From the IMG/VR virus record IMGVR_UViG_2724678985_000012: a stretch of DNA of 64,000 bases; one strand, given 5' to 3'. Positions 1,333 to 45,956 of this stretch are shown one piece after another. The notes under the pieces were generated by a model. That model made no database searches, was not told the origin of the DNA, and worked only from the letters and a program-made list of their open reading frames with translations. This DNA is from a virus. Its lineage: Duplodnaviria; Heunggongvirae; Uroviricota; Caudoviricetes. The position numbers were made by a program, and so were the translations under genes. Within the stretch, counting starts at the first letter, position 1. Every line of letters begins with the position of its first letter.

Positions 1333-1408
1333 GGCCCTTTAGCTCAGTGGTTAGAGCTGGCGACTCATAATCGCACGGTCACCGGTTCAAGTCCGGTAGG
1401 GGCCACCA
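1333..1408 (+). tRNA. tRNA with CAU anticodon (tRNA-Ile2/lysidine type or tRNA-Met)
   Basis: 76-nt cloverleaf: 7-bp acceptor stem GGCCCTT/AGGGGCC, D-loop AGTGGTTAG, anticodon loop CTCATAA, T-arm GGTTCAAGTCC, encoded 3' CCA. Resembles enterobacterial ileX-type tRNA from memory. Confidence 0.85.
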
Positions 1409-6227: not shown

Positions 6228-7265
6228 TTACCAGAGCTTCGCGGCGTACTGCGTTTGGGGGAATGTGTATCCGTAACGTTCTTCGATTGCTTTGCCGTAT
6301 TTTTTACGAGCTTCATTCAGTTTAATGCCGGTCAGGTCGTCTCCAGAGGCCATCATTACGTCTAACAATTCCAGATCCATTTTATCCAGCCTTGCCATTG
6401 CTTCACGTGATGTACGTATCTTACGTTCAATGATATGGCGAATAGCCGGATCGGCATCCTCCAGCATCTTAGCGGATTTCTGCTTAAGGCTTTCATTGCG
6501 AATATCGATGTTCCTTAAGATGTACGACTTCGCAACGTAGCTTGGCTGGTGTTTTTCCAGGTCACGAACACGATATAAGTTAAAATCGCCGAGAAGGCTG
6601 CAAGGTACCGATTCGACGCCAGAATAAATTGTAATGCTCCGGCGTTCACCAACATTATTGACAACGGGGATCGTTGTCTTCGGTAGTCTTGCGAAAACCA
6701 ATGCGCCATGTGCGCCAACTCTAAAGCGAGAAAGGGCATTGCTGCCTTCGATGTTTGTTGTCAGCACAACATCTGTATATGCCTCTTTACGCGCCCGGTA
6801 GATCTCGCCTTCAGGCTCAGCTTCAAAGAAGCGCTGTTCTTCTTCAAGAGCACCTACGATTTGAGAAAAAACCCTATTTTTCAGGCTTTTCTTTATGATT
6901 TTGTCGTATTTTTTTAGCAATTGTTCACGTGTAAATGTACGTGTTGTTGTAGCGCTTTGCACAACGACATGCGTGCTTTGATTGGTGTCCTCAATGATGA
7001 ATGGGATCGGAGAATATACAGACTCAACAATGTTCGACGCTTTGCCGTCGGCATCGCGGCACATGTCAACGAAGGCTTTCCATTCAGCAAGACATTTTTC
7101 AGCTTCTTCTAATATGTTTTGGTCATGCGTTAATGCAACATGGCGGAATTCCTCGCCAGCATAACTGGTATCATGGAAAACAGAGTTTGCGACCACCAGC
7201 TCTTTCCACCGTTCAGCGGTTTGCAGGAACCGTTTGTACTCTTTCTCGATCGACTTCTTACTCAT
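6228..7265 (-). CDS. Putative immunity repressor (C1-like by position and operator context)
   Basis: 345 aa between pacB and lox/cre, where P1 carries c1; operator-like motif 15 bp upstream of its start. Sequence identity to C1 not verified. Confidence 0.4.
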   Translation of the reverse strand: MSKKSIEKEYKRFLQTAERWKELVVANSVFHDTSYAGEEFRHVALTHDQNILEEAEKCLAEWKAFVDMCRDADGKASNIVESVYSPIPFIIEDTNQSTHVVVQSATTTRTFTREQLLKKYDKIIKKSLKNRVFSQIVGALEEEQRFFEAEPEGEIYRARKEAYTDVVLTTNIEGSNALSRFRVGAHGALVFARLPKTTIPVVNNVGERRSITIYSGVESVPCSLLGDFNLYRVRDLEKHQPSYVAKSYILRNIDIRNESLKQKSAKMLEDADPAIRHIIERKIRTSREAMARLDKMDLELLDVMMASGDDLTGIKLNEARKKYGKAIEERYGYTFPQTQYAAKLW

Positions 7266-7279
7266 TATTCCTACTCGAT

Positions 7280-7294
7280 TTAGTTTTCTAACAT
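7280..7294 (+). promoter_or_regulatory. C1-type operator-like site (TTAGTTTTCTAACAT)
   Basis: Exact copy of the dispersed motif; second inverted copy with one mismatch at 7364-7378. Confidence 0.5.
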
Positions 7295-20890: not shown

Positions 20891-21135
20891 TGTGGTGGCT
20901 CCTGCTTTTCTGCCTTCAATACCATGCGAGAACCATCATCCAGCTCCCAATTAATTTCACCGCCTTCAGCCATGACTAGATGCCAAACGAGTTGTGCGGC
21001 CTCGTTGGTTACATCACGACCGCGATCATTGCCGACACGACGTTTTGTTCCATCCCCTAAGTCACGCATTTTTGCCAACACGATGGTTTTTGATAGCGGT
21101 GAAAAACCAAGCTGTAGTCGTGCGGAATTACTCAC
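20887..21135 (-). CDS. Hypothetical protein
   Basis: 82-aa ORF. Confidence 0.4.
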   Translation of the reverse strand: MSNSARLQLGFSPLSKTIVLAKMRDLGDGTKRRVGNDRGRDVTNEAAQLVWHLVMAEGGEINWELDDGSRMVLKAEKQEPPQ

Positions 21136-21896
21136 TGTTTGCCTCCTTTTCCAAGCTGGGCGGCGATATCTTCGAGAACGCCATCAGAGAATGAGCGGTC
21201 AAAATCGCCTTCCGGCGCATTAGCCATAAACTCAGTAGAGGTAAGAATCATCCGGGCAATATCCGCGGCGTTCTTCGCAGTATCATCAATAAAACCAGCT
21301 TCCCAGGCAGCCAGCATTCTGTTCGCCACAAAGTAAGCGCCCTCCTTGCGTGCTTCAGTCTTCACTTCAGCCAGGAAAGCATCGGTGGCTGGTGTTTGCG
21401 GCATCCCTCCATCTGTTGCGCAGATATACGCATCAGATATTTCATCCTGCTCGCCATCAAACACGTAGCAACTCTGTGCGATGAATTTATTCAGCCCCGC
21501 ATTCTCCGCCGCCAGCGCCGCGCGATTACCCTCCAGCTCTGCAATGCGCTGTTTTGCGGTATCAAGTTCAATCGATAATTTTTCCAACTGCTCTTTATGC
21601 TTCTTGTATTCCTGATATGCGTGCCAGGACTGACCTTTGCGCACACTATCAGTAATATCAGTAATCTGTTCTGGTGTTAGCGTAGTCAGTGGCTGTGCTG
21701 GGAAAATCAGCACTTTCCCGGAATCCCAATCAAAACCAGCGTGAATTGACTGAACCTCAACTGAGGGTGTTGAACCAATGCTGCCAGGCGAATGAACAAC
21801 GATCGTTACATCCATATCGCGACGATGGCTGTGGTTGTTGGACAAAATACGATTCACCAACTCAGAAAATTTGGAGAATTTCATGCGGAGCCTCAA
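21132..21896 (-). CDS. Ead/Ea22-like protein
   Basis: 254 aa; coiled coil plus C-terminal TPATDAFLAE motif shared with ORF 22300..22788. Confidence 0.45.
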   Translation of the reverse strand: MRLRMKFSKFSELVNRILSNNHSHRRDMDVTIVVHSPGSIGSTPSVEVQSIHAGFDWDSGKVLIFPAQPLTTLTPEQITDITDSVRKGQSWHAYQEYKKHKEQLEKLSIELDTAKQRIAELEGNRAALAAENAGLNKFIAQSCYVFDGEQDEISDAYICATDGGMPQTPATDAFLAEVKTEARKEGAYFVANRMLAAWEAGFIDDTAKNAADIARMILTSTEFMANAPEGDFDRSFSDGVLEDIAAQLGKGGKQ

Positions 21897-22336
21897 TATG
21901 CAAAATAGACCGTTGCCACGCCGTTATAGTGATCAAACGATACGGCGTTTACTTCATAGCTGGCAGGGAGCTTCGAGCCGAGAACATATCCGGGCCACGT
22001 TTTCCATGGAATTTCTCTACTCTCACTATCCCCATATACCGTACATCCAAGTGAACCTACAGCCTCGTCAGAACGTTTGCCGCATGTTATGAAACCTATA
22101 TTTTTCTTGCCGGTCTTAATGGCGATTGGGTGAACACTGGCTGATGCATTGGCAGCACGCTGTGACTGTTGGTTTGCGATATTCGCAGAGTTCGCAGCAG
22201 CTACAGCAGCCGTGGTCGCGGCGGTAGATGCCACAATAACTGCTGAAGCCTGCGCCTGTTGGGTAATGGTCAGCAATGCCGCCACAAAAATCATCCTCTT
22301 CACTTGCCAGCTCCTTTGCGAATCTGTTCCGCCCAT
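21893..22336 (-). CDS. Secreted protein (signal peptide)
   Basis: 147 aa; MIFVAALLTITQQAQASA signal-like segment. Confidence 0.4.
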   Translation of the reverse strand: MGGTDSQRSWQVKRMIFVAALLTITQQAQASAVIVASTAATTAAVAAANSANIANQQSQRAANASASVHPIAIKTGKKNIGFITCGKRSDEAVGSLGCTVYGDSESREIPWKTWPGYVLGSKLPASYEVNAVSFDHYNGVATVYFAY

Positions 22337-22788
22337 TCTTCAAGGGATTTCTCCGCATATTCACCAGACAGGCCATCAATCGGATGCGCTTCATTAGCCA
22401 ACTCTTCTTTCGCTGACAAAATCATGCGTGTAACGTCGAAAACTTCACGCAAAGACTTATTGATAAATCCGTGATTGAACGCAGCAGCAAGACGGCTTGC
22501 GGTATAGTTAATCCCCTCGTTGCGAGCCGCCGCACGAATTTCAGCCAGAAAAGCATCGGTGGCTGGAGTTTCGCTGTGGTGCAGGGCATCGTTGATAATC
22601 ATTGCAGCAACTCCGGCCTGCCCTGCATCCGTGACCGACACATGCTCAAGAGTTACAGCCATTGCATGTTTCAGCCCAGCATTCTCCGCCGCTAGCGCAG
22701 CACACGCTTTCTCAAGTCGGGAAATTTCCGTTACATACTCAGCGTTACGCTCTGCCAGTTGTGCGGGCGTTAAACCTTCAGACTTCAT
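22300..22788 (-). CDS. Ead/Ea22-like protein (paralog)
   Basis: 162 aa; shares coiled coil and TPATDAFLAE C-terminal block with 21132..21896. Confidence 0.45.
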   Translation of the reverse strand: MKSEGLTPAQLAERNAEYVTEISRLEKACAALAAENAGLKHAMAVTLEHVSVTDAGQAGVAAMIINDALHHSETPATDAFLAEIRAAARNEGINYTASRLAAAFNHGFINKSLREVFDVTRMILSAKEELANEAHPIDGLSGEYAEKSLEEWAEQIRKGAGK

Positions 22789-23095
22789 ACACTCTCCTTT
22801 CGAAATAAACGTACTGATTAATCATGCCCAGGGGCATTTCGAGTTTTTCCGCGATCTCACGGCGGGGAACACCACACTGATGAAGCTGCCGTGCCAGTTC
22901 TATATCGCTCTGCCGGTATTTGGCTGACGGATGAAAGTCTCCTTTCAGAATCATGCTGATCCCCAACTCCCGCGCTTTAGTCCTGACGGCATCACCGGTA
23001 CGACCGATCAGCTTCCCAATACTCTCGACCGTCATAGTTCCGGCGCACTGGCGGAGTATCATGATTTCTGCCCTTCCCCATCCCCGCCAGCTCAC
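22778..23095 (-). CDS. Putative small HTH DNA-binding protein
   Basis: 105 aa with HTH-like segments. Confidence 0.4.
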   Translation of the reverse strand: MSWRGWGRAEIMILRQCAGTMTVESIGKLIGRTGDAVRTKARELGISMILKGDFHPSAKYRQSDIELARQLHQCGVPRREIAEKLEMPLGMINQYVYFERRVYEV

Positions 23096-23730
23096 GCAGA
23101 ACTCCTTCTAACCAAAAGAACGCCATCTTCAGAAACAACGTTGCAGGACTTCAGGTAATTCATTGCCTCTTTCGGTAATGGATTCTTTGGATCGGCGTTT
23201 GCCAGGGATTTCGATAACCTCATGATAAATTTGATCATTACCTTCTGGCGGAGCTTGTGCTCATGAGATAAAGAAAGGTAATAGGAAATGGTATGGGCTA
23301 AACGCTCACGAAGCTGTTCTGTGCCGTGATATACAGCAGCGATATCACGCAGTGCATTGACCAGTTCCCGGTAAATATGTGGAGCAACCTGGCATTCAAT
23401 GTTGGTTGGTGACTCATAAATTACAGTCAGCCCCAGCTTTTCAGCCAGCGCGTGCTCTGCACGAGCACCAACCGATTCTTCCCATCGATTGAGCAAATAG
23501 ATCGCATCAGCAGAACGCACCATTGCCAGGCAAATATCCATGTATTCACTCTGGCAAAGGCCACCAGGTAACACCGCTGGATTCAGAACGATATGCCCTT
23601 CAGCCATCAGCTCGATCGCTTTCGCATTAAACGCCGCACGGTTGTAATCTGGATAACCAGTCATCGGCCCCGCGATGTAAATTTTCAAAACACGTTTCAC
23701 CATCAAAATTTCCCCAAAATCGTGACGCAA
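23092..23730 (-). CDS. DUF4406-like (nucleoside deoxyribosyltransferase-fold) protein
   Basis: 212 aa; N-terminal KIYIAGPMTG...NPAV pattern. Confidence 0.45.
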   Translation of the reverse strand: MRHDFGEILMVKRVLKIYIAGPMTGYPDYNRAAFNAKAIELMAEGHIVLNPAVLPGGLCQSEYMDICLAMVRSADAIYLLNRWEESVGARAEHALAEKLGLTVIYESPTNIECQVAPHIYRELVNALRDIAAVYHGTEQLRERLAHTISYYLSLSHEHKLRQKVMIKFIMRLSKSLANADPKNPLPKEAMNYLKSCNVVSEDGVLLVRRSSA

Positions 23731-23975
23731 AACATAAGCACTGCGAAAAGCTCAATACCAAGTTCAAGTAGCGCCAACGCCCCGAAAAACAACACATAGA
23801 ACAGGCCAATCTCATTCACAGATGGCTGGTGGATCGCACTTAAAGCTATAAGCATCATGTCCTCCAAACAGTTATCAGGAATGATATTAATGTTTTGTAT
23901 TAGAAAATCAATTTTGAATATCTAACCATTTTGATCAATCATAGAAAAATCGCTGAAAAGTAAGAGGCTGCCATC

Positions 23976-24554
23976 ATGCAGAAACAGAGCTATTGGGAGA
24001 AACAGAGACAAAAAGCCATGCAAAAATTGGCTGACCCGGCCTGGCGAGAGGAACAAAGGGCAAAGCGCCTTCAACAAGCTCAACGCCAGCAGCAGCGAGC
24101 GAGAGAAAAAGCCGCATCGCCTGAATATCGGCAAAAAAAAATTGAAAAAGCAAAGCAATATGACCAGCGGAGAAAAGAGAAAGCTGTATCCGCTCCGTCC
24201 AAAAAAACACGCACGTCACGCGGCCTGAAGGGCAGATCACTCACAGCCGATGAACGCCGGATACAGACCGCTATCGGTACTCTCCCCTGCATTGCCTGCC
24301 ATATTCACGGGAAACATAGCCCAGTGGTATCCCTGCACCATATCTTCGGGAGAACGGCAGAGAACGCACATAAATATGTCCTCCCTTTGTGTAAATGGCA
24401 CCACCAGTACGCAGCGCCAGCCGAGGTCCGAGAACAATATCCCTGGCTGGTCCCTGTTCATGCTGATGGAAAAATAGGCGGAAAAGCAGATTTCATACGG
24501 CACAATGCCGATGAAATGGCGTTGTATCAGATGGCGATTGAATTGATAAATTAG
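23976..24554 (+). CDS. ref: Ref recombination enhancement function, HNH endonuclease
   Basis: 192 aa; C-terminal GLKGR..ERRI...LPCIAC..HG...VSLHH..GRTA....LPLC.WHHQ.AAPAEVRE.YPWLVPVHADG matches P1 Ref. Confidence 0.85.
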   Translation: MQKQSYWEKQRQKAMQKLADPAWREEQRAKRLQQAQRQQQRAREKAASPEYRQKKIEKAKQYDQRRKEKAVSAPSKKTRTSRGLKGRSLTADERRIQTAIGTLPCIACHIHGKHSPVVSLHHIFGRTAENAHKYVLPLCKWHHQYAAPAEVREQYPWLVPVHADGKIGGKADFIRHNADEMALYQMAIELIN

Positions 24555-24565
24555 TTTTCTAACAT
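24551..24565 (+). promoter_or_regulatory. C1-type operator-like site
   Basis: TTAGTTTTCTAACAT exact; degenerate copy upstream of ref at 23896-23911. Confidence 0.5.
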
Positions 24566-24885
24566 TTTAAGTTGAATTGTGAATTTCCCCGATGTACATT
24601 CACTACCGATTGGTACACCGGTCAACTTTTTGAGACAAACTGTTTAGTTTTTCGTATTATTGCCGCCGCCATACCTATGGCGGTGCAATATAGGTGGCTG
24701 AAAAGCCCCCGTTGACTCACGGTGTTCCAGCCTTTATTGCGCCGCCACCAGACCGTGGAACAGTCGATGGCGGCTCCGAAAGCAAGGAGTCACTACACTA
24801 TGAACAACTACAGTCTTTTCCCATCACTCGTCGTCCACCACTCACGCGATAATCTGCATTCTTTACTCGCGCCGGGGGTGTCAAA

Positions 24886-25053
24886 ATGACTGTTCGCTAC
24901 CTCAACTTTCAAATCAAGAACATTACTGGCGGTTGCTATGACTGGTTTGTCACTCTCGGAAAAGAAGTGATTACTGGTAAACTGGATGAAGTGAAAGCTA
25001 AAGCAATGGCCTACGCCTGCAAGCAAACCAGGAAGAAATCCGCCAAAGCATAA
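24886..25053 (+). CDS. Small ORF (55 aa) in immI-like leader
   Basis: Hand-translated MTVRYLNFQIKNITGGCYDWFVTLGKEVITGKLDEVKAKAMAYACKQTRKKSAKA; followed by hairpins and a strong terminator. Confidence 0.25.
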   Translation: MTVRYLNFQIKNITGGCYDWFVTLGKEVITGKLDEVKAKAMAYACKQTRKKSAKA

Positions 25054-25156
25054 AATACTGACTGTTGCGCCCTGGCATTATCGTGGGGTATATTTCTACG
25101 GCACCTTAGAAAAACGGGTGCCGGGATTGGAACCCCGGATAATGTCAAAGGCGACA

Positions 25157-25180
25157 CAGACGCCGAAAGCGTCTTTTTTT
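25157..25180 (+). terminator. Rho-independent terminator
   Basis: GACGC-cgaaa-GCGTC followed by T7 run. Confidence 0.75.
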
Positions 25181-25365
25181 GTGTCACGCCATCGCACAGC
25201 CATACGTAGCGTTTAGCTCAGAGATCAATGGTAGTGCTGGCTGGGCTGCCGAAAGGCAGGCCGGTTCCCTTTGACGCCGGTAGTTCCAACCCAGTCAGTG
25301 CTACCGCCATTGAGATTGGAACCTCACGCGGTAGCTCCTTAACTTAGTCAAAGGAGGCTGCCAAT

Positions 25366-25581
25366 ATGGCTACTATCCCTACCCCAACTCATTCTGAATT
25401 TATCTGGCGTTTCTATTCCTGCCAAAAACACCTGTATATCTGCGTCATGGCTGCTACCGAAGCAGAGGCGCGCTCATACCTTCCCGAAGAACCCTGCATT
25501 TTTGCTGCTCGCTTCACTCTTGATGCGATGGAGATCCTCAATTACTGGAATCTGCCGATGAACTGCGTGGAGGTGCACTGA
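25366..25581 (+). CDS. Icd-like (host cell division inhibitor) small protein
   Basis: 71 aa starting MATIPTPTHSEF with EAEAR...FAARF pattern recalled for Icd-like proteins; AGGAGG RBS. Confidence 0.5.
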   Translation: MATIPTPTHSEFIWRFYSCQKHLYICVMAATEAEARSYLPEEPCIFAARFTLDAMEILNYWNLPMNCVEVH

Positions 25582-26522
25582 TGAATCTGTCCATCTCTCA
25601 AAAAGCGACAATGACCAGTATTGAGATCGCGGAACTGGTGGGAAGTCGTCACTCTGATGTTAAACGCAGCATCGAAAGACTTGTTGCTAAAGGAGTTATC
25701 CAACATACGCCATTGGCTACAGTTGAGAATAATCAATCACTTAGCCCTAATAAATACACAAAAGCCTATTTCTTCGAAGGCGAACAAGGCAAGCGCGATA
25801 GTATTGTCGTCGTCGCGCAGCTCTCTCCCGAATTCACCGCCCGGCTGGTGGACCGCTGGCGCGAATTGGAGAATGCCCGGGTACAGTTAAAATCAAAAGC
25901 CGAAATTCTGGCTGAAATGGCGCAAATGCATCTTGAACATGAACGCCGGATCAACGCCGTAAATGCCCAGGTAGCCGAGGTATCGGCACAAGTGTCCAGG
26001 GTCGCTGAAACCGTTGAGCAAATCAAGAAAGGCAATATGCCGGAAGGCTACATTGGCTACCGCCAGCTGGCGGCAAAATGCGGCCTGACCGAAGCCAAAT
26101 GTCGCAACCTGGTCAACGCTTACCGGATTCCCACCGATACGCATGAGTTTTTAACTCCCGATGGTTTGCTTGCGCGACGCTCCATTGTGGCCCTGGCCCC
26201 CTTCCGGAAAGCCTTTAAGCAGGTGATGTCGGAGGCAGAACCACGCAATAAACGCTGGTATCATCCAAAGATGGGGATGTTTCAGGCAATCAACCATCCT
26301 GTGCCTGAAAGCCCAAAGGATAATCTGTCACTACATACCGCCAGAGAGAAGATCAGGACTGGATACGCAACAGTGTGTCGTCGTTCTTCCTGGCCTGAAG
26401 GTATATGGGTGTGGCCCGAAGGTGGATCACGAAAGCACTGGCGCACTATCCGGGATGGGAAAATCCATGCTATTGATTTAGCTCCAGAGGATGTTGTTGC
26501 TACGGACTGGATTGTTAGTTAA
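25581..26522 (+). CDS. Rha-family phage regulatory protein (possible antirepressor)
   Basis: 313 aa; N-terminal MTSIEIAELVGSRHSDVKRSIERL typical of Rha domain; coupled to icd-like ORF. Confidence 0.6.
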   Translation: MNLSISQKATMTSIEIAELVGSRHSDVKRSIERLVAKGVIQHTPLATVENNQSLSPNKYTKAYFFEGEQGKRDSIVVVAQLSPEFTARLVDRWRELENARVQLKSKAEILAEMAQMHLEHERRINAVNAQVAEVSAQVSRVAETVEQIKKGNMPEGYIGYRQLAAKCGLTEAKCRNLVNAYRIPTDTHEFLTPDGLLARRSIVALAPFRKAFKQVMSEAEPRNKRWYHPKMGMFQAINHPVPESPKDNLSLHTAREKIRTGYATVCRRSSWPEGIWVWPEGGSRKHWRTIRDGKIHAIDLAPEDVVATDWIVS

Positions 26523-36020: not shown

Positions 36021-36063
36021 CATTTGTGTTAGATAATTAATATGTATTTTCTAACACAAATGG
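36021..36063. promoter_or_regulatory. Palindromic operator-like element upstream of rdgC
   Basis: CATTTGTGTTAGA ... TCTAACACAAATG, 13-bp inverted repeat with 17-bp spacer; arms contain the TCTAACA operator core. Confidence 0.45.
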
Positions 36064-38585: not shown

Positions 38586-40247
38586 TTAACCTAACTTCGC
38601 CCAGGTATCACGCAGCCCAACGGTGCGGTTAAATACCGGTTTTTCCGCCGTGGAATGGCGGCTGTCGAGGCAGAAATAACCTTCACGCTCAAACTGGAAT
38701 GCTTTACCCGCTACCGCTTCTTTCAGCGACGGTTCAGCAAAGCCCTGTTTGATCACCAGCGATTCCGGGTTAATCACCGACAGGAAATCATCCGCAGCAC
38801 CTGGGTTCGGTACACTGAACAGACGGTCGTACAGGCGAATTTCAACCGGCAGCGCATGGGCCGCGCTTACCCAGTGGATAACGCCTTTCACTTTACGACC
38901 ATCTGCCGGATCTTTGCTTAAAGTATCGGCATCGTAGGTACAGAAGATGGTGGTGATATTGCCTTCGGCATCTTTCTCCACGCGTTCAGCCTTAATGACG
39001 TAAGCATTACGCAGACGCACTTCTTTACCCAGCACCAGACGTTTGTACTGCTTGTTAGCTTCTTCGCGGAAATCGGCGCGGTCGATCCAAATCTCACCGC
39101 TAAACGGCACCTGACGGCTACCCATTTCCGGTTTGTTTGGATGGTTCGGCATGGTGACCATTTCGCCTTCGCCCTGGTAGTTTTCGATAACCAGTTTCAC
39201 CGGATCGATAACCGCCATTGCGCGCGGGGCATTTTCGTTGAGATCTTCACGGATGCAGGATTCCAGCGACGCCATCTCAATGGTGTTGTCCTGCTTGGTC
39301 ACGCCGATGCGTTTGCAGAACTCACGAATAGAAGCAGCAGTGTAACCACGACGACGCAGACCGGAAATGGTCGGCATACGCGGGTCATCCCAGCCTTCAA
39401 CGTGCTTGTCGGTTACCAGCTGGTTCAGCTTACGCTTGGACATCACGGTGTATTCCAGATTCAGGCGCGAGAATTCGTACTGGCGCGGATGAACAGGAAT
39501 GGTGATGTTGTCCAGTACCCAGTCATACAGACGACGGTTGTCCTGGAACTCAAGCGTACACAGAGAGTGCGTAATACCTTCCAGCGCATCGCTGATGCAG
39601 TGGGTGAAGTCGTACATCGGGTAGATGCACCACTTGTTGCCAGTCTGGTGGTGTTCAGCAAACTTAATACGGTACAGCACCGGGTCGCGCATCACGATAA
39701 ACGGCGAAGCCATGTCGATTTTCGCACGCAGGCAGGCTTTACCTTCTTCAAAACCACCGGCACGCATTTTTTCGAACAGCGCCAGGTTCTCTTCAACGCT
39801 GCGGTCGCGGTACGGGCTGTTTTTACCCGGCTGCGTCAGGGTGCCGCGGTATTCGCGGATCTGTTCCGGCGTCAGTTCGTCAACATACGCCAGTCCTTTG
39901 TTGATCAGTTCAACAGCATAGGCATGGAGTTTGTCAAAATAATCGGAGGAGTAACGGATGTTGCCAGACCAGTGAAAACCTAACCATTCAACGTCGTTTT
40001 TAATCGACTCGACGTACTCGATATCTTCTTTTACCGGGTTAGTGTCGTCGAAACGCAGGTTGCACTGGCCTTTATAGTCCTGGGCGATCCCGAAGTTCAG
40101 GCAGATAGATTTCGCATGACCAATATGCAGATAGCCATTCGGTTCCGGCGGGAAACGGGTATGTACTGTGGTGTGCTTACCACTGGCCAGATCTTCATCG
40201 ATGATCTGACGAATAAAGTTAGTCGGGCGGGCTTCTGCCTCACTCAT
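38586..40247 (-). CDS. glnS: Glutaminyl-tRNA synthetase, near-identical to enterobacterial chromosomal GlnS
   Basis: 553 aa; HIGH and VMSKR motifs; differs from E. coli GlnS (as recalled) at only a few positions. Confidence 0.95.
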
Positions 40248-45941: not shown

Positions 45942-45956
45942 AACTCTAATGATTTG

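Follow-up and report, generated by a model that had tools for sequence, protein, structure and literature searches.

The region analyzed here, part of a D6-like plasmid prophage, is very probably a secondary immunity operon of the immI type, in which two C4-type modules are arranged in series behind one C1-type operator. The window (the whole stretch of DNA that was analyzed, 64,000 nt) is a phage-D6-like plasmid prophage. The operon is a phage switch of known kind, in which the small antisense RNA C4 would restrain a cell-division inhibitor (Icd) and a probable anti-repressor; its sole novelty is an additional, unannotated C4-like RNA immediately upstream of the known one. The D6-like plasmid pYU39_89 has a homologous locus in which isrK, c4, icd, and rha are already annotated, the published order being ref, hypothetical gene, isrK, c4, icd, and rha (PMC6799933).

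The assignment is based on RNA family membership, RNA structure, complementarity with covariation, homologous genes, and the repeated occurrence of the operator motif. A first-pass annotation had compared the region to the P1 immI operon, in which a c4-like processed antisense RNA controls icd and the anti-repressor. All of the elements it named are present at or very near the positions it gave, and covariance models, part order, and Icd homology support the comparison. The immI-type layout stands with qualifications: the payload lacks an ANT/KilAC domain, the locus is additional to the repL cassette, and the upstream C4-like RNA had been missed. The features are listed in Table 1.

Table 1. 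Features of the operon and its putative repressor gene (positions in the window)
Feature	Position	Strand	Basis or detail
C1-like repressor gene (345 aa)	6228..7265	-	tblastn with P1 C1; NCBIfam phage_rep_C1
C1-type operator motif TTAGTTTTCTAACAT	24551..24565	+	Exact and near copies across the window
Candidate operator-proximal promoter Pa (TTGAAT, 17 nt, TACATT)	24572..24600	+	Predicted by reading the sequence
Tentative a1/b1-like element, upstream module	24606..24631	+	Hairpin loop AUUGGUACAC, then GGUCAAC and U5 run
Candidate promoter Pb (GAGACA, 17 nt, TATTAT)	24632..24660	+	Promoter scan
Upstream C4-like RNA (c4-up)	24673..24752	+	Rfam C4 (sub-threshold); own covariance model R1; fold
c4-up b' (loop), UGACUC	24713-24718	+
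c4-up a' (junction), UGUUCCA	24723-24729	+
c4-up targets a2 and b2	24756..24792	+	Complementarity
c4-up a2, UGGAACA	24756-24762	+	In loop of hairpin GCCGCCA/UGGCGGC
c4-up b2, GAGUCA	24787-24792	+	Overlaps Shine-Dalgarno AAGGAG (24784-24789)
29-aa ORF, internally deleted icd-like gene	24800..24889	+	Comparison with intact relatives
55-aa protein gene (orf55)	24886..25053	+	phrog_7786, 144 bits
Candidate own promoter of downstream cassette (TTGCGC, 18 nt, TATATT)	25065..25094	+	Predicted by reading the sequence
isrK/c4-a1b1-type element (hairpin 1, hairpin 2, b1, terminator)	25101..25180	+	Rfam isrK (RF01394)
a1, UUGGAAC	25127-25133	+	Loop of hairpin 2
b1, GUCAAAGG	25144-25151	+
Intrinsic terminator	25158-25180	+	Terminator scan
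C4 antisense RNA	25224..25311	+	Rfam C4 (RF01695)
C4 b', CCUUUGAC	25268-25275	+	Loop of hairpin 2
C4 a', GUUCCAA	25283-25289	+	Single-stranded junction
39-aa ORF across C4 gene	25228..25347	+	Pfam Phage_ASH, 32.2 bits
Downstream targets a2 and b2	25316..25357	+	Complementarity, fold, composite-site count
a2, UUGGAAC	25316-25322	+	Loop of hairpin 25300-25307/25328-25335
b2, GUCAAAGG	25347-25354	+	Overlaps icd Shine-Dalgarno GGAGG (25353-25357)
icd homologue (71 aa)	25366..25581	+	tblastn, NF033153, phrog_1426
Rha/Roi-family protein (313 aa), putative anti-repressor	25581..26522	+	Pfam Phage_pRha

Operator, repressor, and candidate promoters

The part order corresponds to that of the annotated P1 immI: operator, promoters, a1, b1, terminator-like hairpin, c4, a2, b2 on the ribosome-binding site, icd, and an overlapping ant. 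In D6-like relatives, the cassette adjoining repL is a separate one; therefore, the locus described here is an additional immI-type cassette located beside ref. The operator proposed earlier at 24551 is a 15-mer with three exact copies in the window (7280 on the + strand, 19340 on the - strand, and 24551 on the + strand) and near copies at 45956, 2847, 7366, and 27981. When up to three mismatches were allowed, 10 matches were found in the window versus 2.2 expected, a number reached in 0 of 100 shuffles, and diverged relatives retain the motif at the corresponding place. The C1-like repressor gene has one copy immediately upstream of it, its upstream region is flanked by the copies at 7280 and 7366, and its product is likely to be the protein that binds this motif. 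P1 C1 aligns with it at 21% identity across 268 aa (tblastn E 2.6e-6), and its score on NCBIfam phage_rep_C1 (25.4 bits) is far under the equivalog cut-off of 500. Directly behind the operator at 24551 stands the upstream C4-like RNA, not the downstream C4.

The three candidate promoters are weak consensus matches, one of which passed a promoter scan that found promoter-like sites to be no more numerous than in shuffles. Pa, which matches 8 of 12 consensus positions, is under the scan threshold; the same -35/-10 arrangement behind the operator is also present in the diverged lineages L050 and E. fergusonii. Pb, the sole + strand promoter-like match between 24400 and 26700, adjoins the upstream C4-like RNA on its 5' side. 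Its GAGACA is invariant across lineages whose flanks are just 49-72% identical, and the form TAnnnT of its -10 element is also kept (TATTAT, TATGAT, TATCAT, and TAATAT). The third candidate ends 6 nt ahead of the isrK start, and its -10 element TATATT is shared with Stx-phage cassettes that have a correctly spaced, near-consensus -35 element (TTGACT). Similarity to the P1-like phage RCS47 starts at approximately 25058, and a S. Concord plasmid diverges from approximately 25041.

The downstream module

The two hairpins and terminator recognized by the first-pass annotation correspond to an Rfam isrK match at 25101-25179 (62.7 bits versus a gathering score of 50), whereas the c4-a1b1 model gave just 22.4 bits versus 46.7. 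The terminator consists of AGACGCCGAAAGCGTCT followed by T7, and the architecture of the whole element is kept in 14 cassettes. The block described as shared, GATTGGAAC, occurs in the window at 25125 and 25314 only. Covariance models placed the C4 RNA (77.1 bits versus a gathering score of 45) as well as the a1b1/isrK-type element exactly where structure had been anticipated, and the reported internal complementarity proved to be the 17-bp closing stem of C4 (25229-25245 paired with 25290-25306). The minimum free energy of this RNA is -46.5 kcal/mol (z = -5.0), and, by analogy with P1, the mature form is predicted to span approximately 25230-25308. Among 13 diverse C4s, pairing holds in 98% of cells, and 13 pairs have changes on both sides; the covariation score of these 13 cassettes (0.568) compares with 0.227 in shuffles, was reached by 0 of 500 shuffles, and falls to at most 0.126 when the partners are slid.

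The b' and a' segments of C4 are complementary to one pair of sites upstream (a1/b1) and another pair downstream (a2/b2). The composite TTGGAAC-N(5-35)-GTCAAAGG occurs three times in the 64 kb (a1b1, a2b2, and the opposite strand of the C4 gene), compared with 0.01 expected. Both sets of segments, a'/a1/a2 and b'/b1/b2, vary together across more than 12 related cassettes (the set comprised P1, P7, D6, RCS47, 673R5, F039, Stx1_14040, Stx2_14040, phiP27, phi346, L047, L050, and the window), with at least four specificity alleles within D6-like plasmids; comparisons of duplex energies were noisy. In all cassettes examined, b2 overlaps the ribosome-binding site.

The 39-aa ORF that runs across the C4 gene is probably not a conserved protein gene. 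Its counterpart in a relative is annotated as 'ash family protein' (RefSeq, PGAP annotation), and reading from the conserved AUG gives 8, 14, 31, 37-39, or 72 codons, or more than 100 without a stop, depending on the cassette. Its end is separated from the icd start codon by 18 nt. A positional analogue is orf45 of Gifsy-1, translation of which has been shown (PMC4825925).

The Icd-like ORF and the overlapping Rha-family gene of the earlier description were both substantiated. The former has 62.7% identity to P1 Icd (tblastn E 2e-18), 49.4 bits on NCBIfam phage_ICD_like NF033153 (cut-off 25), and 139.9 bits on phrog_1426; the latter reaches 32.7 bits on Pfam Phage_pRha versus 29.9, and the two genes share one base, with the icd stop on the payload start (TGATG). 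The payload matches phrog_63 'anti-repressor Ant', the family that also contains P1 Ant1, over its whole length (213 bits). On the other hand, a domain search for the ANT/KilAC domain of P1 Ant1 did not find it in this protein, and BLASTP against P1 Ant1 gave no pairwise similarity (E 0.21). The label of anti-repressor is therefore based on position and on the broad PHROG family, and the protein is best described as a putative anti-repressor.

The upstream module

A second, divergent C4-like RNA, c4-up, would follow the same logic as the downstream module with a different specificity. On Rfam C4 it scores 40.2 bits, just under the gathering score of 45, with a window-wide E of 3.4e-4. Model R1, which was built without c4-up, matches it over its full length (42.5 bits, E 2.3e-7), and, when folded alone, the RNA adopts the C4 architecture (-36.2 kcal/mol, z = -4.6). 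It is 92-99% conserved versus 49-72% for the upstream flank, and its closing stem is kept in full with structure-preserving changes, one position being U.U, C-G, or U.G in three lineages. Lineages whose icd-like gene is intact have no C4-type RNA other than c4-up at the locus. No annotation of c4-up was found in the records and tables examined.

The composite TGGAAC-N(5-35)-GAGTCA was found only at the a2/b2 site of c4-up and in the opposite strand of c4-up itself; both target segments are invariant in every lineage with an intact Shine-Dalgarno sequence. With regard to the tentative a1/b1-like element, UUGGUACAC (24610-24618) pairs at 8 of 9 positions with the a' segment of c4-up, and GGUCAAC (24620-24626) pairs with GUUGACU, including one G-U pair. 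This element is a weak terminator-like match in the scan and is degenerate, being kept just in part across other lineages.

At the position of the 29-aa ORF, E. fergusonii and S. dysenteriae plasmids carry an intact 61-aa Icd-like gene (NF033153, 47.1 bits), approximately 130 nt of which is missing in the window and D6. The stop of the 29-aa ORF overlaps the start of orf55 (ATGA), and in some plasmids a 1-nt indel fuses the icd-like ORF to the 55-aa gene to yield proteins of 83-85 aa. The 55-aa ORF itself, previously noted as an ORF only, is under purifying selection (pN/pS 0.16 versus the E. fergusonii plasmid copy). Its homologues were seen in D6-like phage-plasmids only, including lineages that do not have the downstream cassette.

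Proposed regulation and relation to known systems

From these features we infer RNase P processing, repression, translational coupling, anti-repressor activity, and promoter function. Based on the P1 mechanism as summarized previously (PMC12197685 and PMC8546580), the downstream module (25065-26522) would work like P1/P7 immI. Briefly, transcription would enter the isrK-like leader, which contains a1 and b1 and has an intrinsic terminator at its end. C4 would be carried in read-through transcripts, from which RNase P is predicted, by homology to P1, to excise a stable RNA of approximately 79 nt. Its loop b' and junction a' would pair with a2/b2 just ahead of icd and cover the ribosome-binding site, so that neither icd nor the overlapping Rha/Roi-family gene would be translated; an untranslated icd is expected to end transcription ahead of the payload gene, as in P1. 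The upstream copy a1/b1 would provide a second C4 binding site next to the terminator, and could either favor termination, in the manner of P4 and N15, or, within the short terminated RNA, serve as a decoy like IsrK in Gifsy-1. If C4 were outnumbered, as could happen on derepression of the operator, both Icd and the Rha-family protein would be made, and the latter would probably counteract the C1-like repressor. In the upstream module (24632-25053), c4-up would pair with a2/b2 on the ribosome-binding site of the 29-aa icd-like remnant, which may be translationally coupled to the conserved 55-aa gene. It was also reported that Gifsy-1 is subject to activation by IsrK, not repression by the C4-like RNA (PMC4825925), and control at a1/b1 may therefore run in either direction.

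Two alternatives place the main control elsewhere in the downstream module. Positive control of the Gifsy-1 IsrK type, in which the short RNA ending at 25180 would act in trans on read-through transcripts and open an inactive a1/b1-a'/b' cis structure, so that the ORF at 25228-25347 is translated and the downstream genes follow by coupling, is rather unlikely to dominate. It would account for the isrK match above the gathering score and for an Ash-family ORF placed over C4 like orf45; in Gifsy-1, a stable RNA (STnc1160) downstream of IsrK and IsrK-orf45 pairing are documented, and IsrK in trans increased anrP translation more than 100-fold (PMC4825925). However, C4 and the payload gene are separated here by icd, as in P1, the small ORF across C4 is variable in length and stops short of icd, and the direct placement of b2 on the icd Shine-Dalgarno sequence fits C4 repression. 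Both modes are compatible, and IsrK could be a decoy for C4. The N15 CA RNA is an analogue of a termination-type control, in which pairing of C4 with a1/b1 (and a2/b2) on the nascent transcript would force termination at 25158-25180 and translational repression would be secondary. The distance of 6 nt from the end of b1 to the terminator stem speaks for this mode, as does the structural homology of IsrK to seqA of P4, where the processed CI RNA terminates transcription by pairing with seqA and seqC (PMC4825925). We nevertheless consider it doubtful as the main mode here: the terminator is already strong alone (6-bp GC-rich stem and T7), and the conserved overlap of b2 with the ribosome-binding site would be needless for termination control alone.

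Two further alternatives concern the ends of the operon. c4-up might be the decaying and now functionless remnant of a duplicated cassette, the downstream module alone being active, which would agree with its sub-threshold Rfam score, the internal deletion in the following icd-like gene, the degenerate a1/b1 partner, and lineage L050, where c4-up is missing altogether and the 55-aa gene comes straight after the operator and promoter. This is improbable in view of the strong conservation of c4-up relative to its flanks, the full closing stem with structure-preserving changes, the retained a2 and b2 with b2 on the Shine-Dalgarno sequence, the conserved -10 element, and its status as sole C4-type RNA where the icd-like gene is intact. 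The 313-aa protein, for its part, might be a DNA-binding regulator for lytic development, like Roi or Rha, instead of a C1-binding anti-repressor. Its N-terminal 146 residues are approximately 55% identical to Roi of phage 933W, Pfam winged-helix matches accompany Phage_pRha, and the ANT/KilAC domain of P1 Ant1 and RCS47 Ant and similarity to Ant1 are absent; this option is to be taken seriously, although it is the less favored one. The position of an ant gene behind c4-icd, the whole-length match to the family of P1 Ant1, and cassettes of the c4-icd type whose interchangeable payloads are annotated as anti-repressors argue for the anti-repressor.

With the reading as two C4-type modules behind one operator preferred, a close known counterpart is immI of P1/P7, which is composed of Oc4, P1c4/P2c4, a1, b1, c4, a2, b2, icd, and ant1/ant2. 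The two systems have in common the part order, the family and fold of C4, the placement of b2 over the icd ribosome-binding site, homologous Icd proteins, a payload overlapping the icd stop, and a repressor operator upstream. In contrast, a' and b' are GUUCCAA and CCUUUGAC here but CUGUCAA and CACUAAC in P1, the leader fits the isrK model and not c4-a1b1, the payload is of the Rha/Roi family, the locus lies beside ref and not at kilA-repL, and a second C4-type module stands in front. The P1-like phage-plasmids RCS47, JL22, and vB_EcoM-673R5 carry a second c4-icd cassette at another genomic position, between pacB and c1, with ORF6N payloads with ANT or ORF6N alone. That of RCS47 is 87% identical to window positions 25058-25514 (isrK, C4, and icd start), with an identical b' and a different a' allele.

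In the anti-immunity system of N15, the processed leader RNA CA, which has complementary sites on both sides, keeps an immunity-breaking operon silent. CA and P4 CI were reported to act mainly by premature transcription termination. Like the RNA proposed here, P4 CI is a small processed RNA derived from an untranslated leader that pairs on both sides of itself, with seqA and seqC, to silence an immunity-breaking operon (PMC4825925). The isrK-orf45-anrP locus of the Salmonella prophage Gifsy-1 also contains an IsrK-type RNA with terminator, a C4-like RNA over a small ORF, and an anti-repressor-like gene, and IsrK and STnc1160 have common complementary segments; the control demonstrated there is activation in trans by short IsrK through orf45 translation (PMC4825925). 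Unlike the window, Gifsy-1 has no icd; in the window, b2 covers the ribosome-binding site of icd and the length of the small ORF is not conserved. Finally, D6 orf82-87 and the ref-isrK-c4-icd-rhaI region of pYU39_89 represent the same locus as the window. The annotation of D6 includes Icd and a putative anti-repressor, and that of pYU39_89 includes isrK, c4, icd, and the anti-repressor Rha (PMC6799933). D6 is 92% identical to the window over 2 kb and differs in its specificity allele, with UUGAGAC and GCAAAAGG in place of UUGGAAC and GUCAAAGG for a and b.

The isrK-C4-icd-rha cassette

Of the three matches that Rfam covariance models gave over the 64 kb at curated thresholds, two fall in this locus. 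The C4 model (RF01695) matches over its full length (model positions 1-87) with 77.1 bits against a gathering score of 45, and the isrK model (RF01394) passes with 62.7 bits against 50. The internal complementarity that the first-pass annotation had seen in the leader is the 17-bp closing stem of the C4 RNA, while its two hairpins and strong terminator correspond to the isrK-type element, which matches the Rfam model and ends in a Rho-independent terminator. The sequence block described there as shared, GATTGGAACC, is the target pair a1 and a2. The c4-a1b1 model (RF03163) reaches 22.4 bits against 46.7 on 25101-25180; in P1 and P7 the pattern of the two models is reversed. The isrK and c4-a1b1 models represent the same element in two sequence groups, and in the isrK alignment the P1 group is shifted relative to the remaining cassettes.

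The minimum-free-energy fold of the C4 RNA consists of the closing stem, two hairpins, and a single-stranded junction (z = -5.0). In an alignment of 13 diverse C4s, bases pair in 98% of cells, and both partners have changed at 13 pairs; the covariation score is 0.568, compared with 0.227 for shuffles and no more than 0.126 after sliding partners by 1-3 columns. The tRNA-like features visible in the sequence are the closing stem and a 3' GCC behind it.

Two recognition segments of C4, a' in the junction and b' in the loop of the second hairpin, are each complementary to one site upstream (a1, b1) and one downstream (a2, b2) of the RNA. The a1 site lies within the loop of the second isrK hairpin, and the terminator stem starts 6 nt after b1. 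On the other side, a2 occupies the loop of a hairpin in which the C4 stem's 3' arm pairs with downstream sequence, and b2 overlaps the GGAGG of icd. The window contains the pattern TTGGAAC-N(5-35)-GTCAAAGG at three places against 0.01 expected by chance, namely at the two target pairs and, on the opposite strand, in the C4 gene itself. A search within the window for more trans targets of either C4 yielded none apart from the flanking pairs. RNAduplex calculations of a' and b' against the leaders favoured the cognate combinations (for b', -19 to -21 vs. -9 to -13 kcal/mol for non-cognate ones), but the shuffle controls are weak (fractions 0.01-0.6), and these energies carry no weight in the interpretation.

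With regard to the protein-coding part, the proposed Icd-like ORF overlapping a 313-aa Rha-family gene is borne out. The former encodes 71 aa with 62.7% identity to P1 Icd and passes NCBIfam NF033153 with 49.4 bits, and the first base of the latter is also the final base of the icd stop codon. Residues 11-98 of the 313-aa protein match Pfam PF09669 (Phage_pRha) with 32.7 bits against a gathering score of 29.9, and its N-terminus is ~55% identical to Roi of 933W. No match to ANT/KilAC (PF03374) was found in this protein, compared with 106.5 bits for P1 Ant1; BLASTP detected no pairwise similarity to Ant1 (E 0.21), a sequence search of the PDB returned nothing below E 0.3, and the two proteins have only the broad family phrog_63 in common. 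On payload position and phrog_63 membership, in a protein lacking ANT/KilAC, anti-repressor activity is plausible, though unproven.

The ORF over C4 is routinely labelled an 'ash family protein', as in RefSeq (Pfam Phage_ASH, 32.2 bits). The ORF opened by the conserved AUG in C4 has 8, 14, 31, 37-39, or 72 codons, or more than 100 without a stop, depending on the cassette. Because of this variable length, the family may largely reflect a translated conserved RNA gene, and the label over C4 is probably an artefact of RNA conservation.

Features of the locus and of other regions discussed, in window coordinates
Feature	Position	Sequence or detail
tRNA-Met	1333-1408 (+)	anticodon CAT
C1-like repressor gene	6228-7265 (-)	345 aa
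Putative operator	24551-24565	TTAGTTTTCTAACAT
Candidate promoter behind operator	24572-24600	TTGAAT-17-TACATT
Possible upstream a1/b1	24610-24626	UUGGUACAC; GGUCAAC
Promoter-like sequence	24632-24660	GAGACA-17-TATTAT
Upstream C4-like RNA	24673-24752	junction UGUUCCA; loop UGACUC
Upstream a2	24756-24762	UGGAACA
Upstream b2	24787-24792	GAGUCA
icd remnant	starts 24800	29 aa
55-aa gene	24886-25053	
Candidate promoter of downstream cassette	25065-25094	TTGCGC-18-TATATT
isrK-type element	25101-25179	RF01394
a1	25127-25133	UUGGAAC
b1	25144-25151	GUCAAAGG
Terminator	25158-25180	AGACGCCGAAAGCGTCT then T7
C4 RNA	25224-25311	RF01695
'ash family' ORF	25228-25347 (+)	
b'	25268-25275	CCUUUGAC
a'	25283-25289	GUUCCAA
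a2	25316-25322	UUGGAAC
b2	25347-25354	GUCAAAGG
icd	start codon 25366	71 aa
icd/rha overlap	25579-25583	TGATG
Glu/Gln tRNA synthetase gene	38586-40247 (-)	

A divergent C4-like RNA in front of the 55-aa gene

A permissive Rfam scan revealed a second C4 match upstream, whose 40.2 bits fall just short of the 45 set as gathering score but remain significant (E 3.4e-4 for the whole window). A model built from 13 C4s excluding this RNA matches it over the full length with 42.5 bits (E 2.3e-7). The upstream RNA is treated here as a divergent C4 homologue and not as a curated member of the family. On its own it folds as a C4, with closing stem, two hairpins, and junction (z = -4.6). Its junction is complementary to an a2 site placed in the loop of a hairpin built exactly as that of the downstream module, and its loop is complementary to a b2 site overlapping the Shine-Dalgarno sequence AAGGAG of the ORF starting at 24800. 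Possible a1/b1 counterparts (UUGGUACAC pairs at 8/9 positions and GGUCAAC with one G-U) are partly conserved and lie upstream of the best promoter candidate.

Plasmids of E. fergusonii and S. dysenteriae have an intact Icd-like gene of 61 aa at the 24800 position. D6 and the window have lost ~130 nt of it, and the short ORF left there ends in a stop that overlaps the 55-aa gene's start (ATGA). The 55-aa ORF noted in the first-pass annotation proved to be a real gene (pN/pS 0.16; phrog_7786), and its product gave no alignment with P1 Coi.

The upstream RNA forms an island of conservation, being 92-99% identical in lineages whose upstream flank is 49-72% identical. One stem position reads U.U, C-G, or U.G over three lineages. 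The promoter-like sequence directly ahead of the RNA has an invariant -35, and its -10 varies at tolerated positions only. In the search for distant relatives that could provide independent covariation, homologues of the 55-aa protein were found in D6-like elements only, and the 61-aa icd-like gene in one viral contig; beyond this, both searches came up empty. The upstream RNA probably controls the family-specific 55-aa gene.

Relatives, specificity alleles and earlier annotation

D6 is a plasmid prophage related to P1. The 2.1 kb around the locus share 92% identity with Escherichia phage D6 and 93-98% with 86 plasmids of ~90 kb from E. coli, and the locus is also found on Salmonella and Shigella plasmids. 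The D6 record has the window's gene order: a ref-like nuclease is followed by small hypothetical ORFs, then by an icd-like gene, and last by a 'putative anti-repressor'. On account of this identity and the common gene order, the window is a piece of a D6-like phage-plasmid. The element also encodes a tRNA-Met and a Glu/Gln tRNA synthetase of class I that is full-length (433 bits to Pfam tRNA-synt_1c) and whose gene is named glnS in a relative.

In a re-annotation of the D6-like Salmonella plasmid pYU39_89, the homologous locus was described as ref, a hypothetical protein, ncRNA isrK, ncRNA c4, icd, and anti-repressor Rha, and a second cassette, c4-icd_2-kilA, was listed behind repL (PMC6799933). 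The finding is therefore known both in kind and in instance; the RNA families of the locus are already in Rfam, C4-type antisense control of icd/ant is textbook P1 biology, and the main result is one more instance and no new principle. The upstream C4-like RNA is without annotation in D6, the RefSeq records, and the pYU39_89 table. It is the sole new element here, as a divergent member of a known family, and this sub-threshold RNA sits unannotated in ~100 sequenced phage-plasmids of E. coli, Salmonella, and Shigella.

Cassettes were compared from P1, P7, D6, RCS47, vB_EcoM-673R5, four Stx phages, phiP27, and metagenomic D6-like contigs. Each has its own a'/b', and in all of them a' finds its complement in both a1 and a2, and b' in both b1 and b2. 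The three copies of each site covary over more than 12 cassettes. In the downstream cassette of D6-like plasmids at least four alleles occur, with a being UUGGAAC, UUGAGAC, or UUGGUCU and b being GUCAAAGG or GCAAAAGG, and all three copies of a site change jointly, a pattern known for P1/P7 heteroimmunity. The D6 allele (b' CCUUUUGC, a' GUCUCAA) differs from that of the window. Such jointly changing alleles form a naturally occurring series in which the evolution of antisense specificity, and with it of heteroimmunity, can be studied. Across comparison loci L017-L049, L001, and L009 (module ~1716-2000), a and b types occur in several combinations, which suggests recombination between a-type and b-type determinants. 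Among D6-like plasmids, the upstream C4-like RNA holds one specificity throughout.

The locus has a mosaic make-up. Some D6-like plasmids carry only the upstream module and the 55-aa gene, one metagenomic relative has the 55-aa gene and the downstream cassette without the upstream RNA, and in the P1-like RCS47 and vB_EcoM-673R5 a close copy of the downstream cassette, with different payload genes, lies between pacB and c1. The window and NZ_CP028198, a plasmid of Salmonella Concord, are identical from ~21000 to 25040, beyond which the plasmid has another gene. The similarity to RCS47 begins at ~25058 and includes the candidate promoter ahead of the isrK-type element, the -10 of which is common to Stx-phage cassettes with a near-consensus -35. 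Taken together, the mosaic make-up and a similarity start that takes in this promoter make the downstream module look like a self-contained, exchangeable cassette.

Several further observations concern these relatives. The Concord junction at ~25041 lies within the last codons of the 55-aa gene, and a 'transcriptional regulator' there replaces isrK-C4-icd-rha. In RCS47 (L009 1545-3143) and 673R5 (L010 1545-2778), the isrK-C4-icd cassette is additional to the immI position, with ORF6N plus ANT or ORF6N alone as payload; the RNAs and icd of the cassette are unannotated in the RCS47 record. In a D6-like IMG/VR contig (2579778873_000001; L028 1716-2000), a deletion fuses a1 to a2 (GGGATTGGAACC joined to TCACGCGG) with loss of the terminator and the entire C4 gene, as if the two GATTGGAACC repeats had recombined, and the icd downstream looks disrupted. 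In the Stx-phage and phiP27 loci L012 (1274-2296), L013 (1448-2107), and L014 (1274-2107), the annotated 'Ant' or regulatory CDS begins far upstream and crosses the isrK and C4 genes, and the AUG within C4 opens a frame that continues for more than 100 codons and enters the region of the downstream gene, which makes the annotated starts doubtful.

The repL-side cassette of pYU39_89 (L052 1160-1530; 67660-68030), a region outside the window, is P1-like, with the a' of P1 (CUGUCAA) and a new b' (CGUAAGU), to which its own a1/a2 (UUGACAG) and b1/b2 (ACUUACG) are complementary. Three C4-type RNAs, each with a different b' sequence, are therefore present in such plasmids.

Putative operator, expected working and comparison with P1 immI

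The putative operator placed at 24551 in the first-pass annotation is a 15-mer, TTAGTTTTCTAACAT, with exact repeats at 7280 and 19340. Counting near copies, the motif has 10 matches in the window where 2.2 are expected; apart from 24551, copies lie at 2847, 7280, 7366, 8690, 19340, 27981, 36026, and 45956. Some are inverted pairs, such as those at 36026 and at 7280/7366; the latter lies upstream of the gene for a distant homologue of the P1 C1 repressor, one copy just upstream of it. Jointly these copies appear to outline a C1-type regulon over the plasmid. The consensus of the P1 operator, ATTGCTCTAATAAATTT, is absent, with a single match at up to four mismatches in the whole window. A local direct repeat, TTGAATTGNNAAWTT, was dropped as an operator candidate; it does not recur (4 matches vs. 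8.9 expected).

The putative operator, whose 15-nt motif is common to the upstream region of the C1-like gene and other sites, lies 7 nt ahead of the -35 of a candidate promoter kept in diverged lineages. The putative operator thus fronts the upstream module and not the downstream module directly.

The C4 mechanism of P1 was taken as the basis for the expected working (PMC12197685, PMC8546580). By analogy, C4 would be cut out of read-through transcripts by RNase P as a stable RNA of ~77 nt and would pair with a2/b2, whereby the icd ribosome-binding site would be blocked and the coupled payload gene not expressed. As in P4, the a1/b1 sites beside the terminator may favour termination, or else the short terminated RNA carrying them may titrate C4, a role that fits the activation by IsrK reported in Gifsy-1 (PMC4825925).

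How the two modules relate can be read in two ways. The first-pass annotation saw one P1 immI-like operon. A different reading, possible but held here tentatively, is that the upstream RNA is active and that the locus comprises two orthogonal C4-type riboregulators in series behind one C1-type operator, rather than a single immI cassette. In the window the a' segments of the two RNAs come near to cross-compatibility (GUUCCAG vs. GUUCCAA); cross-regulation was rejected as a conserved feature because the downstream a' alleles of D6 and of comparison locus L047 are unable to pair with the upstream RNA. Under the reading with two riboregulators, the upstream RNA may gate the 55-aa protein, found only in D6-like phage-plasmids and possibly a small anti-repressor or immunity factor, and the downstream C4 may gate Icd and the Rha-family protein. 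With the third cassette that relatives carry beside repL, D6-like phage-plasmids would then run a two- or three-channel antisense immunity network. If this is true, the upstream-RNA channel is fixed in specificity while another diversifies into alleles.

The resemblance to P1 immI is supported as a whole, the order of parts agreeing with the annotated P1 record. The P1 series runs from the operator through two promoters, a1, b1, a terminator-like hairpin, c4, a2, b2, and icd to ant1, and the window has the same; b2 lies on the icd ribosome-binding site and the payload gene overlaps the end of icd in both. Unlike P1 immI, the payload of the window is without the ANT/KilAC domain of Ant1/Ant2, and the locus follows ref instead of adjoining kilA-repL.
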